Positions 1,337 to 18,143 of a stretch of 64,000 nucleotides of DNA are shown here, one piece after another; the first letter of the stretch is position 1, and each line of letters starts with the position of its first letter. The notes under the pieces are model-generated. The model had not been told where the DNA came from. It worked only from the letters and a program-made list of their open reading frames with translations, and searched no databases. The stretch is from a virus (Duplodnaviria; Heunggongvirae; Uroviricota; Caudoviricetes): IMG/VR virus record IMGVR_UViG_2675903433_000022; one strand, given 5' to 3'. Position numbers and translations under genes: made by a program.

Positions 1337-1660
1337 ATGACCACATCGCATTCTGCTATTACCCAGGAAAAAGCCTTCCACATACTCGAACGATTAGAGG
1401 CGCTTGCTACGGAGGAAGATATATCACTGGAGAAACTGGTTGAGTTCAGCCGTGTGATATTGCGTCGCAAGAACGATATGGAGCGACTGACATCTGGCGC
1501 TCAATCCTTATCAGTCAGGCGAACACTTTGTTGCAGCTTCTGCAACAAATCCCAGTACGCCGTCAAAAAGTTAATTGCTGGGGACGCCGTTTTCATCTGC
1601 GACGAGTGTGTGGATGTGTGCAACAGAATTATCCGGGGAGAGAAAGAGGGATCAGCATGA
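1337..1660 (+). CDS. Protein with C-terminal ClpX-type C4 zinc-finger domain
   Basis: C-terminus [35 protein letters not shown] closely resembles the ClpX N-terminal zinc-binding domain; RBS aaggtgaaagaag before ATG. Confidence 0.6.
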
Positions 1661-2391: not shown

Positions 2392-2913
2392 ATGACCACC
2401 TTTACCAAAGAACAACTAATTGATCATATTAATGATCGCAAAGATGTCCGTCAGAGAATGTTGGATACCGCAACGATTTCTTCTGGATTCCGAGAATATC
2501 TTGAAAGAGAGCTTGCCACCGATCAGATTGCCCTAGCGTCGCTGGAAGCTGAACCTGTTCTGTATCAGTCCTGCACTCGCCCCACTTGGAATAGCGGTGT
2601 TCCGTGGACGGAATGGAAAGAACGTAGTCGTGAGGGCTACGAAAACGATTTGCGCTTTACAGACACGCCTGACCATGCCGGTTGGATAAACAAATGTCGA
2701 AAACTATATACCACTCCGCCAGCGTCACTGCTACCTGACGGACTGGTTAAAGCCGTGCGCTTCTATGAACAGGTTAAGCGTGAAAATCCGCCAGTCGAAA
2801 CCGGAGCATGGAAAGACGCGGTTGACTGGGTGCTTAAAGAGGCTTTCCAGGCTGTATCAGTGTTGGAAAGCAGTAGAGAACACGAAGTTATTAGCCAGCA
2901 GGAGAAGGCATGA
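2392..2913 (+). CDS. Hypothetical protein, N-terminal paralogue of the 3108-3812 product
   Basis: 173 aa; starts MTTFTKEQLI, same as the ORF at 3108. Confidence 0.6.
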   Translation: MTTFTKEQLIDHINDRKDVRQRMLDTATISSGFREYLERELATDQIALASLEAEPVLYQSCTRPTWNSGVPWTEWKERSREGYENDLRFTDTPDHAGWINKCRKLYTTPPASLLPDGLVKAVRFYEQVKRENPPVETGAWKDAVDWVLKEAFQAVSVLESSREHEVISQQEKA

Positions 2914-3107: not shown

Positions 3108-3812
3108 ATGACCACCTTTACCAAAGAACAGTTAATCTCCCATGCACGCGAAAGCGTTAGTTATCTGGAAAACTTGAAAGGACGTGTTAGCAAAGAAGGT
3201 GCGGACTGCAAAGTTGTTATTGAGATGGTTGCACGAGATCTAAAACTGGCTCGAATTGCACTGACCTCACTTGAGACAAAACCAATAGGTGCATTCCACA
3301 TTGCAGAACAGCAAGTTGACGGTACAAGTGACTACATCAAGGATGGAGAGTGGCCTATTGATAATGGGACAATTGAAGTATACGCCGCCCCTCCAGTGCC
3401 AGTAGTACCGGAAGAAAAACCAATGCCTAATCCTCTTAGCATGTACGCGGTTGATGCTGTTGCCGCTATTGCAGAGGTGAGAGGCTGGAACGCCTGTCGT
3501 GCCGCTATGCTTCAGAGTCAAGATAATTGCATTAAGGATGGTTGGATAAGCTGTAGTGAGCGAATGCCTGTAATCGGCGAGCTAAATTGGAGAACTGGTT
3601 TTCCTTTGCTGATTACGTGTGAGATCGGCGTTATACCAGCTTATTACGGCTTTGTGAGCGTTAATGGGGATAAGCATTATGGTTTTATGGAAAGTTTTAA
3701 ATACGGAGACGATCGCGGCGGCCATCCTAAAACTAATGAATATGGTCTGATTAGCAATGTCACACACTGGATGCCGCTACCAGAACCTCCGCAGGAGTCG
3801 AAGAGTGAATAA
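3108..3812 (+). CDS. Hypothetical protein (paralogous N-terminus)
   Basis: 234 aa; MTTFTKEQLI start shared with the 2392 product. Confidence 0.6.
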   Translation: MTTFTKEQLISHARESVSYLENLKGRVSKEGADCKVVIEMVARDLKLARIALTSLETKPIGAFHIAEQQVDGTSDYIKDGEWPIDNGTIEVYAAPPVPVVPEEKPMPNPLSMYAVDAVAAIAEVRGWNACRAAMLQSQDNCIKDGWISCSERMPVIGELNWRTGFPLLITCEIGVIPAYYGFVSVNGDKHYGFMESFKYGDDRGGHPKTNEYGLISNVTHWMPLPEPPQESKSE

Positions 3813-4026: not shown

Positions 4027-4877
4027 TGCATAAATCAGTAGCCGGTGAGTTTCAGAAGGAAGTCGATAATACTACCGTTCTATTGGACGATATTTTAAGC
4101 ATTCTCGCGCTGCTTGAGGCTGGCGATTGGTCAGAACATTGCACTAAAACAGAGCTAGGCGGTCGGCTTGAAAGAGAGATTACACGACTTATTGGTGATG
4201 CGCAGGAAGCTACAGTCACTAGTTATGAGTTAATCGCTGAAGCCTGGCGTTTGATGGATGGACAAGATCCTAAAACCAGCGATTGGCATAGCAAGGCTTC
4301 GAAGTATTTAAATTCCAATAGGGTAGAAAAAGTTGATGATGTGAAACCGAAGCCAGTAGATCACGGTTTCCGCGATAACTGCGAATGCTCTAGTTGCCAG
4401 ACCACGGCCCGTATTTGTTCCGAATTGACAGATAAGTCCAGCCTAATCTACGAAGTTAATGTAGGCGGTAATACATGGGTCGAATGCACAAGAGCTGCAT
4501 ACGTAAGAGCAAAAGACAAGGGTGAATTAACCAGAGTTGTTACCCATCACCCAAATAATGAGCTTAAAGATCACCAGATTCGAGAACTAGTGAACGAGTT
4601 GCGGGATATTGCGGTTACGTATCACGGAACGCAGCAATTGCGGGAGAAAATTGCCAGAGCAGTGAACAACTCGCTCAAAGGTGGACAATCCCAACCGAAA
4701 CGTATACGAATTACACATATAGGTGAAAACGGAACAGAAATCCCCCAATTTTCTGTTGGGGACATCTTTGATGTACATGGAGAAGAGTTTGGTGAGCCTC
4801 ACATCACTATGCCTAGTGGCCATGTTTACTGGCTAAGAGCTATGGAGAAATATGGTGATAAATGGGAAGTGTTATGA
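4023..4877 (+). CDS. Hypothetical protein
   Basis: 284 aa; ATGA-coupled start. Confidence 0.6.
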   Translation: MMHKSVAGEFQKEVDNTTVLLDDILSILALLEAGDWSEHCTKTELGGRLEREITRLIGDAQEATVTSYELIAEAWRLMDGQDPKTSDWHSKASKYLNSNRVEKVDDVKPKPVDHGFRDNCECSSCQTTARICSELTDKSSLIYEVNVGGNTWVECTRAAYVRAKDKGELTRVVTHHPNNELKDHQIRELVNELRDIAVTYHGTQQLREKIARAVNNSLKGGQSQPKRIRITHIGENGTEIPQFSVGDIFDVHGEEFGEPHITMPSGHVYWLRAMEKYGDKWEVL

Positions 4878-5415
4878 GGGATGCGAAGTTATGACCAAAT
4901 TTGGAAAGCTGGAAGCTCATTTGCTGACTCGTAACTACCGCCATGATATACACCCATATAGACAGTGGATTGATGAAAGCGAAGGAGTTGTTACATTCCC
5001 TCTATACAGGTTTGATGGGATGTTGGCCGGGTATCAGACATACAGACCAGGCGCTCCTAAGCAGCATAGCAATCCGAAGATGGCCCGGTATTTCACACGA
5101 GCGCACGGCAGACAGCTACTATGGGGTACCTATCTTCCTTTAAAAGATGGACCGATATGGATAACTGAGTCGATTTTTAAAAGTGCAGCAGTGCACAACG
5201 CGGGCGGAAATTCGTGGGCGCTGTTAGGCTCGACTTTCTCAGCAGGATTACGTCGTCAACTGGCAATGCTGCCGTATGACTTTCGTGTAATAGGTGACAA
5301 TGATGCGGCTGGCGAATCACTTGTGAAGTCTTTCGGAAAAGGTTTTGTGGCACCGGATCTTGACGAGCTACAACCACATGAAGTGTCTAATTTGATTTTT
5401 AGCCATAGCCAATAA
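4852..5415 (+). CDS. Hypothetical protein
   Basis: Track ORF; alternative ATG at 4891 with GAGGGA RBS. Confidence 0.55.
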   Translation: MVINGKCYEGCEVMTKFGKLEAHLLTRNYRHDIHPYRQWIDESEGVVTFPLYRFDGMLAGYQTYRPGAPKQHSNPKMARYFTRAHGRQLLWGTYLPLKDGPIWITESIFKSAAVHNAGGNSWALLGSTFSAGLRRQLAMLPYDFRVIGDNDAAGESLVKSFGKGFVAPDLDELQPHEVSNLIFSHSQ

Positions 5416-5431
5416 GTATCACTTCTCCATT

Positions 5432-5452
5432 AAGGCCACAACTAGTGGCCTT
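5432..5452 (+). terminator. Stem-loop aaggccacaactagtggcctt at end of early operon
   Basis: Perfect inverted repeat immediately followed by the AAACAAtTTGTTT palindrome. Confidence 0.5.
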
Positions 5453-5465
5453 AAACAATTTGTTT
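5453..5465. promoter_or_regulatory. 13-bp palindrome AAACAAtTTGTTT (recurrent early-region motif)
   Basis: One of at least 11 intergenic copies read in the sequence. Confidence 0.45.
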
Positions 5466-5538
5466 TCTACGTTTTCTTATTTGAGAAAATCACGTTGTTG
5501 GCAGCTCATAGGCTTGTTGTTATACATAGCTGTATAGA

Positions 5539-5895
5539 TTATGAGCGTAAATTATTAGCGGATTTTAAGCCATATTCACCGTTATAGTAATTACTCGCGT
5601 TCCATTCATTGGGAAGCTCTTGTCTGTCCAATGTATAGTGGCGCACGATGTAACGACCTGCATCTTCTTCGAGGTACAGGCGGACATAGCCAATGTGAAT
5701 TACCGGTATGGGCGGCGTTCGTATTGCATAGATGTCGCGGAGATATACCGGTAGCTCGACAAATGCATCAGGTGCATCTGTGATGCTCGTTTTTTCACAG
5801 TATTCATATAACGCATCGTTGATATCGTTAAGGGATTCATGATCGTATATTTCCAGGTAATTACCCCGATCGCGATGGTACTCGATTTTAGCCAT
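5539..5895 (-). CDS. Hypothetical protein
   Basis: 118 aa, start adjacent to upstream stop (TGAATG on minus strand). Confidence 0.55.
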   Translation of the reverse strand: MAKIEYHRDRGNYLEIYDHESLNDINDALYEYCEKTSITDAPDAFVELPVYLRDIYAIRTPPIPVIHIGYVRLYLEEDAGRYIVRHYTLDRQELPNEWNASNYYNGEYGLKSANNLRS

Positions 5896-6480
5896 TCAAA
5901 ATCCCCTATTATCGTTTTGCATTTCTCTAATCCGGTCCAGAACAACTTCATGTTGGGCTTGGATAGCGGCTTTTTCGTTTTCAAGCCGGGCAATAGACTT
6001 CTCTAATTCTTTGCTGTACCAGGCAAGTTGGGTAAGGTTCATCCGGTTGTGATCGAGAGTTGGCGACACCTCGACGTGATCCCCTTCTTCCTGCCTTAAT
6101 GAGAAGAGATTCATCTCATCCCTTGAGGAAAATTCAGCAACAATTTCTTGTTGATGATCCGGTCGCTGCGGCATCCTTGCCAGTATAAATGGCGGTTCTA
6201 TTGAAAACATGAATGACGGTTTAGACCGTGTTTTGACCCATCTAGCTTGCTGTCTTTCGGCAAGTTCACAGGCTTCATCATAGTTATCTACAAAACCAAG
6301 CACGGATGGACGGTCCCACGCGCCACCATTCAGACAATAAACAACAATTTTCCCGTCAGGTTCTGTAACTCCATAGGGATGGTCCCACCAGGCGTCCAGC
6401 TGGGCTTTGGAGCGTTTCTCGTTAGGAGTGCAGTCAAAATTTTTGGGCAATGCAGGATCGAGAGGAATGCGGGCAGGCAT
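5896..6480 (-). CDS. Hypothetical protein
   Basis: 194 aa; RBS aaggaa 6 nt before ATG on minus strand. Confidence 0.55.
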   Translation of the reverse strand: MPARIPLDPALPKNFDCTPNEKRSKAQLDAWWDHPYGVTEPDGKIVVYCLNGGAWDRPSVLGFVDNYDEACELAERQQARWVKTRSKPSFMFSIEPPFILARMPQRPDHQQEIVAEFSSRDEMNLFSLRQEEGDHVEVSPTLDHNRMNLTQLAWYSKELEKSIARLENEKAAIQAQHEVVLDRIREMQNDNRGF

Positions 6481-6614
6481 GGCTAATTCCTTATTAATTG
6501 ATTAGTAACGAGGTTACGCTGATCCAGCGGTGATGAATAGTAGCAAAGCGCACAAAGTCATCAGAGGGGTTAAGACCCATAACGCGTTTGCACCAAAGGT
6601 GCATCTTTAATGTA

Positions 6615-6634
6615 TACTGTATGGATAAACAGTA
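6615..6634. promoter_or_regulatory. LexA (SOS) box tACTGTatggataaACAGta
   Basis: CTGT-N8-ACAG match to the SOS-box consensus TACTGTATATATATACAGTA, 19 nt upstream of the UmuD'-like start, overlapping a TATACT -10-like hexamer. Confidence 0.6.
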
Positions 6635-6652
6635 TTTTGAGGTGAAAACGCT

Positions 6653-7042
6653 ATGGGCTTCCCTTCTCCTGCGGCGGATTATGCTGAGAGCCGTATTTCT
6701 CTTGATCAGCAGATAATTAGACATCCTTCAGCGACCTACTTCATGAGGGCAGCTGATAGCCATCATCGTGAGGGAATATTACAGGGTGCATTGCTGGTGG
6801 TCGATTCCTCACTTACCCCGGTTGATGGTTCTCTGCTTGTATGCGCTCTGGATGGGGAATATCGCGTAAAAAGATACCGGAAGTATCCACGTCAGCATCT
6901 GGAGGATTTAAGAACCGGTAAGAAGGAAGCATTGCCAAAGGATGACGATGGATGCACGGGCAGCAATGCCGTGTTTGGTGTGATCACTCACATTATCAAC
7001 GACGCAAGAAGTGGCGAGTTTGATGATTGTCCCGTGATGTAG
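6653..7042 (+). CDS. UmuD'-like S24 peptidase-family protein, lacking the N-terminal arm
   Basis: Begins MGFPSPAADY, matching UmuD just after its self-cleavage site as remembered; conserved HPSATYF and VK motifs; RBS GAGGTGA; no umuC downstream. Confidence 0.7.
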   Translation: MGFPSPAADYAESRISLDQQIIRHPSATYFMRAADSHHREGILQGALLVVDSSLTPVDGSLLVCALDGEYRVKRYRKYPRQHLEDLRTGKKEALPKDDDGCTGSNAVFGVITHIINDARSGEFDDCPVM

Positions 7043-7054
7043 GAGAACTGATTA

Positions 7055-7078
7055 GGCGGTGCAATGCACCGCCTTTTT
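7055..7078. terminator. Bidirectional rho-independent terminator
   Basis: ggcggtgcaatgcaccgcc hairpin plus T-run, between convergent UmuD'-like gene and apbC. Confidence 0.6.
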
Positions 7079-7079
7079 A

Positions 7080-8180
7080 TCACACTGCGCGGAATGCGAT
7101 TTCGCCAGGTATTACTTCACCTTGCCAATACATTTGGGCAGCAACGCGATCTGCGAGGTCACGATAAATAGCCGTAAATTCGCTATCTGGACGACTAATA
7201 ACGGTTGGTGTTCCGTTATCCAGATCTTCACGAAGAGAGATATGAAGTGGCATTTGGCCTAACAACTGCGTGTTGTATTTCTCGGCCAGTTTCTGTGCGC
7301 CACCGGTGCCAAAAATTGGCTCGTGATGACCGCAGTTACTGCAAATATGCATACTCATGTTCTCGACAATACCGAGCACCGGAACCTCGACTTTCTCGAA
7401 CATCACAATGCCTTTTTTCGCATCGATCAACGCGATGTCCTGCGGCGTAGTTACCACAACCGCACCAGTTACAGGAATGTTCTGCGCCAGCGTCAATTGA
7501 ATATCACCAGTGCCCGGCGGCATATCGAGAACGAGATAGTCCAGATCAGGCCATAGAGTTTCCTGCAACATCTGCATTAACGCCTTGCTCGCCATCGGAC
7601 CACGCCACACCATCGCATTGTCGTCAGTTACCAGATAACCAATTGAATTGGTTGCCAGTCCATGAGACATAATCGGTGCCATGTGAGTACCGTCCGGTGA
7701 GGTTGGACGTTGGTTTTCCGCGCCAAGCATGGTTGGAATTGATGGCCCGTAGATATCGGCATCCAAAATACCAACTTTCGCACCTTCAGCAGCCAACGCC
7801 AGTGCCAGGTTTACCGCCGTGGAGGATTTACCAACGCCGCCCTTGCCTGAGCTGACGGCGATAATGTTCTTAACGCCATTAATGCCTGGTTGGTTTTTGA
7901 CGCGCTTAAGCGTGGCAATGTTGTACGACAGCTTCCAGTCGATAGCCTTTGCGCCAGTGATACGGAGCAGATCACCACTACATTGCTCTTTCAGGTCTTC
8001 AAAAGGCTTATTCCACACGAAAGGCATGATTAGTTCGACATGCAGTGTGTCATCCATCAACGCAACATGGTGTAACGCTTTAAGCGTAGTCAGGTTGTGT
8101 TTCAGGGTTGGGTGCTGAAAATTAGCCAGCGTACCGGCTACCATTGCTCTCAGGGCATCCGGCGATTTGGACTCGCTCAT
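7080..8180 (-). CDS. apbC: Fe-S cluster carrier ATPase ApbC/Mrp
   Basis: 366 aa; SSGKGGVGKSSTAVNLALALA Walker A, CSNCGHHEPIFG motif; ortholog-level similarity to enterobacterial Mrp; divergent from metG as in enterobacterial chromosomes. Confidence 0.9.
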   Translation of the reverse strand: MSESKSPDALRAMVAGTLANFQHPTLKHNLTTLKALHHVALMDDTLHVELIMPFVWNKPFEDLKEQCSGDLLRITGAKAIDWKLSYNIATLKRVKNQPGINGVKNIIAVSSGKGGVGKSSTAVNLALALAAEGAKVGILDADIYGPSIPTMLGAENQRPTSPDGTHMAPIMSHGLATNSIGYLVTDDNAMVWRGPMASKALMQMLQETLWPDLDYLVLDMPPGTGDIQLTLAQNIPVTGAVVVTTPQDIALIDAKKGIVMFEKVEVPVLGIVENMSMHICSNCGHHEPIFGTGGAQKLAEKYNTQLLGQMPLHISLREDLDNGTPTVISRPDSEFTAIYRDLADRVAAQMYWQGEVIPGEIAFRAV

Positions 8181-8337
8181 CCCGTCTCCTTTATTTTAAT
8201 TTGCGCAATTGTCGCCTTGTAGTGTACTCCAGCTACGGCATTTAATCATTTATGAGAAATGCTGTTATCACATGGCAGACATAAGGCCATTTTGTTACTA
8301 TCAAGCCCCTTTTCACTACAAAGAAGTAATGCCTACT

Positions 8338-10371
8338 ATGACCCAAGTCGCGAAGAAAATTCTGGTGACGTGCGCGCTGCCGTACGCTAACGGCTCAATC
8401 CACCTCGGCCATATGCTGGAGCACATCCAGGCTGATGTCTGGGTTCGTTACCAGCGAATGCGCGGCCACGAGGTTAATTTCATCTGTGCCGACGATGCCC
8501 ACGGTACGCCGATCATGCTGAAAGCACAGCAGCTTGGTATCACACCGGAGCAGATGATTGGCGAAATGAGTCAGGAACACCAGACTGATTTCGCAGGCTT
8601 TAACATCAGCTATGACAACTATCACTCGACGCACAGCGAAGAGAACCGTCAGTTGTCTGAGCTTATCTATACTCGCCTGAAAGAGAACGGTTTTATTAAA
8701 AATCGTACCATCTCTCAGCTGTACGACCCGGAAAAAGGCATGTTCCTGCCGGACCGTTTTGTAAAAGGCACCTGCCCTAAATGTAAAGCGCCAGATCAAT
8801 ACGGCGATAACTGTGAAGTCTGCGGCGCGACTTACAGCCCGACTGAACTGATCGAGCCGAAATCGGTAGTTTCTGGTGCTACGCCGGTAATGCGTGATTC
8901 CGAACACTTCTTCTTTGATCTGCCTTCTTTCAGCGAAATGTTGCAGGCATGGACCCGCAGCGGTGCGTTGCAGGAGCAGGTGGCAAACAAAATGCAGGAG
9001 TGGTTTGAATCTGGCCTGCAACAGTGGGATATCTCCCGTGACGCACCTTACTTCGGTTTTGAAATTCCGAACGCGCCGGGCAAATATTTCTACGTCTGGC
9101 TGGACGCGCCGATTGGCTACATGGGTTCCTTCAAGAATCTGTGCGACAAGCGCGGTGATACCACCAGCTTCGATGAATACTGGAAGAAAGACTCCACCGC
9201 CGAGCTGTACCACTTCATCGGTAAAGATATTGTTTACTTCCACAGCCTGTTCTGGCCTGCCATGCTGGAAGGCAGCAACTTCCGCAAGCCGACCAACCTG
9301 TTTGTTCATGGCTATGTGACGGTGAACGGCGCAAAGATGTCCAAGTCTCGCGGCACCTTTATTAAAGCCAGCACCTGGCTGAATCATTTTGACGCTGACA
9401 GCCTGCGTTACTACTACACTGCGAAACTCTCTTCGCGCATTGATGATATCGATCTCAACCTGGAGGATTTCGTTCAGCGCGTGAATGCCGATATCGTGAA
9501 CAAAGTGGTTAACCTGGCCTCCCGTAATGCAGGCTTTATCAACAAGCGTTTTGACGGCGTGCTGGCAAGCGAACTGGCTGACCCGCAACTGTACAAAACC
9601 TTTACTGATGCCGCTGAAGTGATTGGTGAAGCATGGGAAAGCCGCGAATTTGGTAAAGCGATTCGTGAAATCATGGCGCTGGCTGATCTGGCTAACCGCT
9701 ATGTCGATGAACAGGCTCCGTGGGTGGTGGCGAAGCAGGAAGGACGCGATGCCGATCTGCAGGCGATTTGCTCTATGGGCATTAACCTGTTCCGCGTGCT
9801 GATGACGTACCTGAAACCGGTACTGCCGAAACTGACTGAACGTGCAGAAGCATTCCTGAATACAGAACTGACCTGGGATGGTATCCAGCAACCGCTGCTG
9901 GGCCATAAAGTGAATCCGTTCAAGGCACTGTATAACCGTATCGATATGAAACAGGTGGAAGCACTGGTGGAAGCATCCAAAGAAGAAGTGAAAGCCACAG
10001 CTGCACCGGTAACTGGCCCACTGGCTGACGACCCGATTCAGGAAACCATCACCTTTGACGACTTCGCCAAAGTTGACCTGCGTGTGGCGCTGATTGAAAA
10101 CGCGGAGTTTGTCGAAGGTTCTGACAAACTGCTTCGCCTGACGCTGGATCTCGGTGGTGAAAAGCGTAATGTCTTCTCAGGCATCCGTTCCGCTTATCCA
10201 GATCCACAGGCACTGATTGGTCGTCACACCATTATGGTGGCTAACCTGGCTCCGCGTAAAATGCGCTTCGGTATCTCTGAAGGCATGGTGATGGCTGCTG
10301 GCCCCGGCGGGAAAGATATCTTCCTGTTAAGCCCGGATGCTGGTGCTAAACCTGGCCACCAGGTTAAGTAA
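8338..10371 (+). CDS. metG: Methionyl-tRNA synthetase
   Basis: 677 aa from [29 protein letters not shown] (HIGH motif), KMSKS present, C-terminal tRNA-binding domain; track ORF 8209 is an upstream in-frame extension. Confidence 0.95.
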
Positions 10372-13096: not shown

Positions 13097-13408
13097 ATGA
13101 AAAAATCATTGGTTCTTGGTCTGGACAAAGACCAGAAGAGAAAAGAGAAGCCTGCACTGGTTGCTCAATTAACTTTGCTGGACATCGTTGCCAATGGGAC
13201 CTCTATTCGTCTGTTCCGTGAAACAGCGGTGTCTTTCGATAAAAACACCTTTACTCGTTATGTAATGAATGTTCGTCGCCAGCGTGGAAAAGGCTGGGTG
13301 GCATTTCAAAGAATGTGGCCGGAACATCAGCTCGAACTGGCTTTGATGGAAGTAAACCGCGTGGCCCAGCAAGAGATTCAGAGAGCATCAGTGATGGCAA
13401 TAGCCTGA
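13097..13408 (+). CDS. Hypothetical protein
   Basis: ATG with GGAG RBS, preceded by palindrome AAACAAgTTGTTT at 13073-13085. Confidence 0.55.
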   Translation: MKKSLVLGLDKDQKRKEKPALVAQLTLLDIVANGTSIRLFRETAVSFDKNTFTRYVMNVRRQRGKGWVAFQRMWPEHQLELALMEVNRVAQQEIQRASVMAIA

Positions 13409-17618: not shown

Positions 17619-18143
17619 TCAAAAAGGCAAAATTCGCTCAACCCAATCGAACAAAACAACTATTTTTCTACCGTTCTCGACACGTAGTGTAACCTGACAA
17701 GCATCTGCGCCTGCTGACACTCCCTCAATTTCACGGCCATCCGCCATGTACACCCTTATAGATTTGTTTGCTTTGTAGGCTTGGTTGCAAATTGCAAAAA
17801 AATCGCGGCGTGATGGCCGATTATCGACATAATCAGGGTGAACTGTTAGTCGACCTTTGAAATCGTGAGCGATACTGTCAACCACACCTGATTCAATTGT
17901 ACTAATGCGTTCAAGTGGGAGCCTTATACGATTTTCTTTATCAAAAGGGGCTGGGCAAAGGTCAACTTTGTTACGAGATGGCATGAGGCCATAAACGTAC
18001 ATGCAAAACGCCTGGCCATCTTCGAGAGTGACCCTTACAGGAATTTGTTCTCTGCGCCAGAACATCAGTAGTTTTTCAACGTTAGTGTAATCTCGCGGCC
18101 AGAGTTCAGCTTGGATACCGTAGGTAATATCTTTGGTTGTCAT
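17619..18143 (-). CDS. Hypothetical protein
   Basis: Start MTTKD directly after the upstream stop; track ORF to 18221 overlaps the upstream gene. Confidence 0.5.
   Translation of the reverse strand: MTTKDITYGIQAELWPRDYTNVEKLLMFWRREQIPVRVTLEDGQAFCMYVYGLMPSRNKVDLCPAPFDKENRIRLPLERISTIESGVVDSIAHDFKGRLTVHPDYVDNRPSRRDFFAICNQAYKANKSIRVYMADGREIEGVSAGADACQVTLRVENGRKIVVLFDWVERILPF

Follow-up and report, generated by a model that had tools for sequence, protein, structure and literature searches.

The open reading frame located shortly downstream of a predicted SOS box in the analysed stretch of viral DNA (64 kb, here called the window) is assigned to the phage gene humD by a curated family model, which matches the predicted protein across its full length. 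We consider it very probable that this gene forms a cassette with the LexA box in front of it on an SSU5-type phage-plasmid, and that it supplies a pre-cut UmuD' working through the UmuC protein of the host. The identity of the gene as such is ordinary and nothing new: humD is a characterised phage gene, which was described in 1999 (McLenigan et al., J Bacteriol 181:7005) and is annotated in RefSeq. This identity had been missed by the original prediction, which described an SOS-controlled, pre-truncated UmuD'-like protein without UmuC. What our analysis corrects or adds is the SSU5-type backbone, on which only a small cassette is P1-derived or P1-shared, the box-plus-gene unit, whose recombination boundary lies about 10 nt before the box, and, at the family level, the decay of the protease dyad together with a conserved C-terminal tail. 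The features of the region are listed in Table 1.

Table 1 Features of the humD region in the window. The positions refer to the 64-kb window; the strand and the basis of each assignment are indicated.
Feature	Position	Strand	Basis
lxr ('LexA-regulated function'), 194 aa, divergent neighbour of humD	5896..6480	-	P1 Lxr homology
-10-like hexamer TATACT, candidate humD promoter element	6613..6618	+	Read from the sequence; assignment inferred
Predicted LexA operator (SOS box) TACTGTATGGATAAACAGTA	6615..6634	.	Consensus match, conservation, P1 annotation, umuDC geometry
Shine-Dalgarno GAGGTG, 8 nt before the ATG	6639..6644	+	Read from the sequence; conserved in relatives
humD, pre-truncated UmuD' homologue	6653..7042	+	NCBIfam NF051876, PHROG 811, PDB 1UMU, P1 identity
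Predicted intrinsic terminator between humD and the convergent apbC	7054..7079	+	Terminator scan

The humD ORF (coordinates with stop codon included) encodes 129 aa, beginning with MGFPSPAADY as had been noticed before. It reached 219.8 bits with the NCBIfam equivalog model NF051876.1 "HumD family translesion DNA polymerase" (cutoff 120), with residues 1-129 aligned to profile positions 1-129, and PHROG 811 ('UmuD-like protein') covers the protein with profile positions 21-140 aligned. The profile search for Peptidase_S24 (PF00717), which had been suggested along with the original prediction, also gave a match above the gathering cutoff (E=1.6e-9, 37.9 bits, cutoff 23.3), and the NCBIfam UmuD subfamily model scored 87 bits, which is below its cutoff of 110. 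A tblastn comparison revealed that Escherichia phage Cyrano encodes a protein with 100% amino acid identity and that HumD of phage P1 is 91.5% identical. In near-identical plasmids with the same gene context, RefSeq names the product 'HumD family translesion DNA polymerase', and some database records call homologues 'LexA-like peptidase S24' or 'LexA family transcriptional regulator'. All four PDB matches (1UMU, 1I4V, 8GMT and 1AY9) are UmuD or UmuD', the top match being UmuD' 1UMU (E=6.7e-23), where query residue 2 falls on chain residue 1.

The same starting point was obtained in the alignment with K-12 UmuD, in which HumD corresponds to a Met followed by UmuD from Gly25 onwards, i.e. right after the Cys24/Gly25 self-cleavage bond, so that residue 2 of HumD aligns with the residue that begins UmuD'. 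A longer N-terminus or a pro-form is ruled out by a TGA in frame at 6638..6640, five codons before the ATG of humD, and by further in-frame stops upstream. The protein, beginning with Met-Gly, possesses neither the N-terminal arm nor a self-cleavage site, and judged from this architecture it would work like the product of the self-cleavage and not like the proenzyme. The truncation at the self-cleavage site, which the original prediction had put forward from the first residues of the protein, is thus borne out by the alignment and the upstream in-frame stop, and the truncation together with the conserved predicted LexA box supports the proposal that a pre-activated UmuD' form would be made under SOS control. 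With E. coli UmuD', the accessory subunit in pol V (UmuD'2C), HumD shares 42% identity over 119 aa starting from Gly25. In contrast to HumD, which is made directly, E. coli UmuD' requires RecA*-mediated self-cleavage, and umuD is encoded in an operon with umuC, whereas humD has no umuC in an operon. The comparison of humD in the window with P1 yielded a dS of 0.74, a dN of 0.042 and a dN/dS of 0.057, and humD is under strong purifying selection.

The predicted LexA box TACTGTATGGATAAACAGTA matches the consensus TACTGTATATATATACAGTA at 17 of 20 positions, and all three mismatches are located in the central spacer. Since the bare pattern CTGT-N8-ACAG, which had been the starting point of the original prediction, is not above chance in the window (two matches compared to 0.86 expected, and at least two in 22 of 100 shuffles), a test with the 20-mer consensus was needed. 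According to this test, no site in the 64 kb other than TACTGTATGGATAAACAGTA deviates from the consensus by 3 mismatches or fewer, and in 100 dinucleotide-preserving shuffles such a site never arose. The second match of the bare pattern, at position 13211, is a poor box, which probably occurs by chance. The gap between the box and the ATG amounts to 18 nt (6635..6652), and the K-12 umuDC operator, located 19 nt before the ATG of umuD, has the same geometry, with a distance of 18-19 nt in both. In the genome record of P1 (AF234173), the homologous 20-mer is found 19 nt before humD and carries the label 'LexA binding site in the regulatory region of lxr and humD', and humD has been termed a LexA-regulated SOS gene (PMC9603915). 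From the sequence we infer that the humD copy in the window is probably repressed by LexA.

As had been proposed, the box is overlapped by TATACT, which extends into its left arm; the last T of the hexamer is at the same time the T of the required CTGT arm. The consensus scan of positions 6300..7200 returned no passing sigma-70 promoter, and by manual inspection only TATACT and a weak TTGCAC about 19 nt upstream were found in front of humD. Because no canonical sigma-70 promoter passed the scan, the hexamer is referred to as a candidate promoter element here. The predicted operator overlaps this likely -10 element, and hence binding of LexA would be expected to occlude the promoter. However, any such occlusion is tentative, since there is no promoter from the scan and since the P1 record puts a predicted PhumD about 480 bp upstream, within lxr. 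Downstream of humD, the terminator, which was called strong, is formed by a 9-bp stem, in which 7 of the pairs are G-C, and a subsequent T-run, and because of this terminator humD is likely to be monocistronic here, unlike in P1.

The arrangement of box and gene is maintained among relatives. IMG/VR contains 478 confirmed relatives in viral contigs, and we fetched 80 of these loci. In all of the 80, CTGT-N8-ACAG is kept at a distance of 16-19 nt before the ATG, with 16 variants of the box and at least five unrelated upstream flanks, i.e. the arms of the box are conserved and the spacer and the flanks vary. The exact hexamer TATACT is present in 28 of 50 distinct box contexts and the A at its position 2 is conserved in at least 90%; a -10-like nATACT is conserved where it overlaps the left box arm. 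The Shine-Dalgarno sequence occurs as GAGGTG, GAGGTA or GAGGCG. Every locus that was recovered by the N-terminal pattern of the family has the M-G-F-P-S-P start, and loci with an M-GFPSPA start, mostly without adjacent umuC, are distributed over dozens of Enterobacterales species. A disruption by internal stops was seen in the humD homologue of the relative BTP1. The boundary of the unit is visible in the closest relative with a complete genome, CMS-2020a (CP053388.1, L163), whose homology to the window begins at position 6605 and which lacks lxr. Because this homology starts 10 nt upstream of the box, we conclude that the box belongs to humD and that the two move together. CMS-2020a additionally contains a second good LexA-like box (CACTGTATAAGTAAACAGTA, 4 mismatches) at position 17663, in a part of the element that the window does not include.

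According to the nucleotide comparisons, the backbone of the element is that of an SSU5-type (siphovirus) phage-plasmid, which has only a small cassette in common with P1. Between 10.4 and 64 kb, the window shares about 93-98% identity with CMS-2020a, Cyrano and PhiR41_1 and about 75-80% identity with Salmonella phage SSU5 and its Klebsiella relatives; a classification of the whole window as a P1-like phage-plasmid was rejected on the grounds of these backbone matches. Homology to P1 is limited to positions 5913..7041, a cassette of 1.13 kb (1131 nt, 89.4% nucleotide identity) comprising lxr, the box and humD. As judged from the loci compared, the cassette as such consists of the LexA box and humD, and the divergent lxr is optional, since it is present in 23 of the 80 IMG/VR loci and absent from CMS-2020a. 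Lxr of the window has 90% amino acid identity with P1 Lxr over 189 aa (E=4e-133) and matches PHROG 6164 (unknown function) over its full length; neither a Pfam nor an NCBIfam domain was detected in its 194 aa. RefSeq (PGAP) labels its homologue 'DNA-binding protein', and the dN/dS of lxr between the window and P1 is 0.26.

P1 HumD resembles the protein of the window in its length (129 aa), the M-GFPSPAADY start, the position of the LexA box (P1 variant TACTGTATAAATGAACAGTA), the divergent lxr and the missing umuC partner. The two elements differ in their backbones (Punavirus in the case of P1 and SSU5-type siphovirus phage-plasmid here), at 3 positions of the box spacer and in what follows humD, which is the phd-doc addiction module in P1, whereas here the terminator, the convergent apbC and then metG are found. 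N15 gp26, phiKO2 gp23 and lambdoid orphans (HK140, Pocitis76 and many Enterobacterales prophages), with 46-73% identity to HumD, share the pre-truncated start, the C-terminal tail and the lack of an adjacent umuC, and for phiKO2 a lexA site is annotated before the orphan UmuD-like gene. Their divergent neighbour is dinI instead of lxr; in several of them the catalytic Ser is replaced by Thr or Tyr, in Pocitis76 the Lys is replaced by Arg, and some are located behind another small ORF and have no box within 80 nt. Mobile elements are also known to carry umuDC-like operons, such as mucAB, impAB, rumAB and samAB on plasmids. The corresponding operons of Klebsiella phage ST846-OXA48phi9.2 and Cronobacter phage ENT39118 likewise encode an S24 protein of the UmuD type, and in ENT39118 an SOS box (TACTGTATAAATACACAGTA) is located 20 nt before the ATG. 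In contrast to humD, these operons encode a full-length cleavable UmuD, annotated with 145-160 aa, in which the GDSM motif is intact, and a umuC homologue immediately downstream.

Beyond these relatives, we observed a second class of proteins of about 104-117 aa starting with MGFPSPA(A/T)D, which share only about 25-39% identity with HumD and are found in Raoultella, Pantoea, Kosakonia, Klebsiella, Silvania and related genera. At these loci (L136, L138-L140, L143-L149, L151, L153-L157, L159, L161 and L162), umuC is absent within 2.5 kb, and mostly there is no LexA box within 80 nt.

The original prediction had also stated that the window provides no umuC partner. Indeed, a tblastn search of the 64-kb window with six diverse UmuC proteins (best E=0.086) and a search with an HMM built from the same six proteins (best E=0.45) both revealed no umuC, and the same applies to the complete CMS-2020a genome (107,648 bp; UmuC HMM, best E=0.28), to which 86% of the window aligns with 89-98% identity. 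The host, on the other hand, would nearly always contribute the partner gene, since umuC is present in 5423 of 5426 complete E. coli genomes.

Taken together, these data suggest the following course of events. In the undamaged lysogen, host LexA would occupy the operator, which overlaps the likely -10 element, and humD would be off. Upon DNA damage, RecA* would induce self-cleavage of LexA, and humD would be transcribed as a monocistronic mRNA ending at the hairpin downstream of the gene. The RecA*-mediated self-cleavage of UmuD normally delays the activation of pol V. Because HumD already has the form of UmuD', with neither arm nor cleavage site, this slow step would be skipped, and a HumD dimer would assemble with the chromosomal UmuC of the host into a pol V-like translesion polymerase, which would raise damage tolerance and mutagenesis. 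The 1999 study of HumD reportedly found that the protein forms dimers, that it binds to UmuC and to RecA filaments, and that its over-expression restores mutagenesis. Since HumD of the window is 91.5% identical to P1 HumD, it is likely to substitute functionally for UmuD' in the same respects (dimer formation, binding of UmuC and RecA*, SOS mutagenesis); the complementation of UmuD' and the interaction with UmuC and RecA* are taken from the P1 literature and annotation, and the note on HumD in the P1 record reads 'functionally complements E. coli UmuD''. In the citing literature, HumD is treated as activated UmuD. Both humD and lxr of P1 are dispensable for lytic growth, and a benefit of humD to the element is therefore only presumed.

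With regard to the protease residues, about which the original prediction had asked, the alignment to UmuD placed S36 and K73 of HumD at the positions of Ser60 and Lys97; both residues are thus present, and the GDSM motif is degenerate, reading A-DSH with one residue deleted. Among 45 distinct pre-truncated orphan UmuD' homologues (loci L086-L162), the position of the nucleophile is occupied by Ser in 11, by Thr in 23 and by other residues in 11, and the position equivalent to Lys97 by Lys in 25, by Arg in 14 and by other residues in 6. Because only 11 and 25 of the 45 orphan relatives have retained Ser and Lys, respectively, the Ser-Lys dyad is probably vestigial in the HumD family. The C-terminal tail NDARSGEFDDCPVM, in contrast, is strongly conserved across the 45 homologues, and UmuD has no such tail; HumD of the window carries about 10 extra C-terminal residues (GEFDDCPVM) compared to UmuD. 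At the sequence level, the drift of the dyad and the tail absent from UmuD show that HumD differs from a plain copy of UmuD', and the pattern fits a protein that has no need for self-cleavage and that kept the body of UmuD' while gaining a family-specific C-terminus. One could go further and propose that the orphan HumDs, with their decayed dyad and the acquired acidic tail NDARSGEFDDCPVM, have gained an interaction partner or a regulatory property not found in UmuD', such as an altered turnover by ClpXP or Lon or an altered binding of UmuC or RecA*, which the tail may confer; we regard this proposal as unlikely. If true, phage-plasmids found in about 14% of the complete E. coli genomes would, in a way that has not been described, reprogramme when SOS mutagenesis takes place in their hosts.

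The tail is also central to a related view, which we consider decidedly improbable, namely that HumD acts mainly as a modulator of the SOS machinery of the host and not as a productive subunit of pol V, for instance by titrating RecA* filaments, forming heterodimers with the UmuD of the host, disturbing the UmuD2C checkpoint or the turnover by ClpXP, or displacing pol III, with the conserved C-terminal tail as a new interface. The high conservation of an extension that UmuD lacks, at a time when Ser is left in only 11 and Lys in 25 of the 45 homologues, would be in line with such a role, and so would the nonessential nature of P1 humD for lytic growth and the stand-alone ClpX zinc-finger protein (1337..1660) encoded on the same element. 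However, a loss of the dyad is expected in any pre-cut UmuD' and is no argument against a function in pol V, and neither the tail nor the ClpX-like ORF is tied to HumD by evidence obtained here. In addition, the P1 record states complementation of UmuD', and the literature treats HumD as activated UmuD, both of which argue against this view.

Two further explanations are exceedingly unlikely in view of the data. The orphan state of the gene, with no umuC in the window, its degenerate GDSM motif and the existence of disrupted relatives such as BTP1 with its internal stops would also be seen if the ORF were a decaying, non-functional remnant of umuDC that has lost its 5' end and umuC. Such a remnant is at odds with a dN/dS of 0.057 at a dS of 0.74 in the comparison with P1, with the M-G-F-P-S-P start kept and 478 relatives in viral contigs, with the conservation of the operator, the Shine-Dalgarno sequence and the C-terminal tail, and with the existence of a curated equivalog family; selection and conservation together effectively refute it. 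Likewise, we see practically no room for the ORF being the C-terminal domain of a LexA/CI-type repressor or of an anti-repressor-like regulator, an alternative close to one that had been named as refuting the original prediction and that would agree with the common S24 fold and with the LexA-type labels on some database homologues. The LexA model scored only 27.2 bits (cutoff 110.95), which reflects nothing but the shared protease domain, compared to 219.8 bits for the HumD and 87 bits for the UmuD subfamily model, and the four PDB matches are without exception UmuD or UmuD'. Moreover, nothing is located N-terminal to the S24 domain, no HTH domain is present, and the upstream stops make a DNA-binding domain impossible. 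The repressor assignment is refuted by these model scores, the PDB matches and the upstream stops, and HumD as a pre-cut UmuD' remains our preferred explanation.

With this assignment, humD is a textbook case of a mobile element that short-circuits a checkpoint of its host. The delay caused by RecA*-dependent cleavage normally makes pol V a last resort, and encoding UmuD' directly would remove this delay. Of 5426 complete E. coli genomes, 774 contain a match to the region 6400..7100 (start of lxr, box and humD) with a nucleotide identity of at least 80%, in most cases on plasmids. Since 774 of the 5426 genomes match and umuC is nearly universal, a modulation of damage-induced mutagenesis by P1- and SSU5-type phage-plasmids may be widespread in clinical E. 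coli.

Right after humD, the window contains a complete chromosomal-type gene pair, i.e. apbC (mrp; 7080..8180, minus strand), encoding an iron-sulfur cluster carrier, and metG (about 8332..10371, plus strand), encoding methionyl-tRNA synthetase, both far above their NCBIfam equivalog cutoffs. The DNA of this pair is 89% identical to E. coli K-12 mrp-metG over 3298 nt, and because the identity is only 89%, the pair does not represent a recent capture from E. coli. The pair adjoins humD in 23 of the 80 IMG/VR loci and in E. coli plasmids of about 107-128 kb, and the phage-plasmid survey literature that we searched makes no mention of humD, umuD, metG or apbC. On the other side of the cassette, a 118-aa ORF (5539..5895, minus strand; PHROG 5797, unknown function) starts immediately after the lxr stop codon; this ORF lies outside the part shared with P1. 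Neither tRNAs nor Rfam families were found in the 64-kb window.

The 107-aa ORF at 1337..1660 (plus strand) ends with 40 residues that represent a ClpX-type C4 zinc finger (PF06689, E=1.2e-15). The ORF, a member of PHROG 6797 (unknown function), encodes a stand-alone version of the domain that docks adaptors and substrates to ClpX. UmuD and UmuD' are substrates of ClpXP. Based on its domain composition, the ORF could serve as a decoy for ClpX substrates or adaptors. A toprim/primase fragment of 187 aa (4852..5415, plus strand), called 'toprim domain-containing protein' in RefSeq, covers only positions 142-334 of the 435 profile positions of PHROG 849 'DNA primase' and lies within the variable region 4673..6604, which is absent from CMS-2020a. 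Finally, the ORFs at 2392..2913 and 3108..3812 (both plus strand), one of which contains DUF551, have the N-terminus MTTFTKEQLI in common. Located in the variable region before humD, they resemble a pair of paralogous accessory genes of the Ead/Ea22 type.
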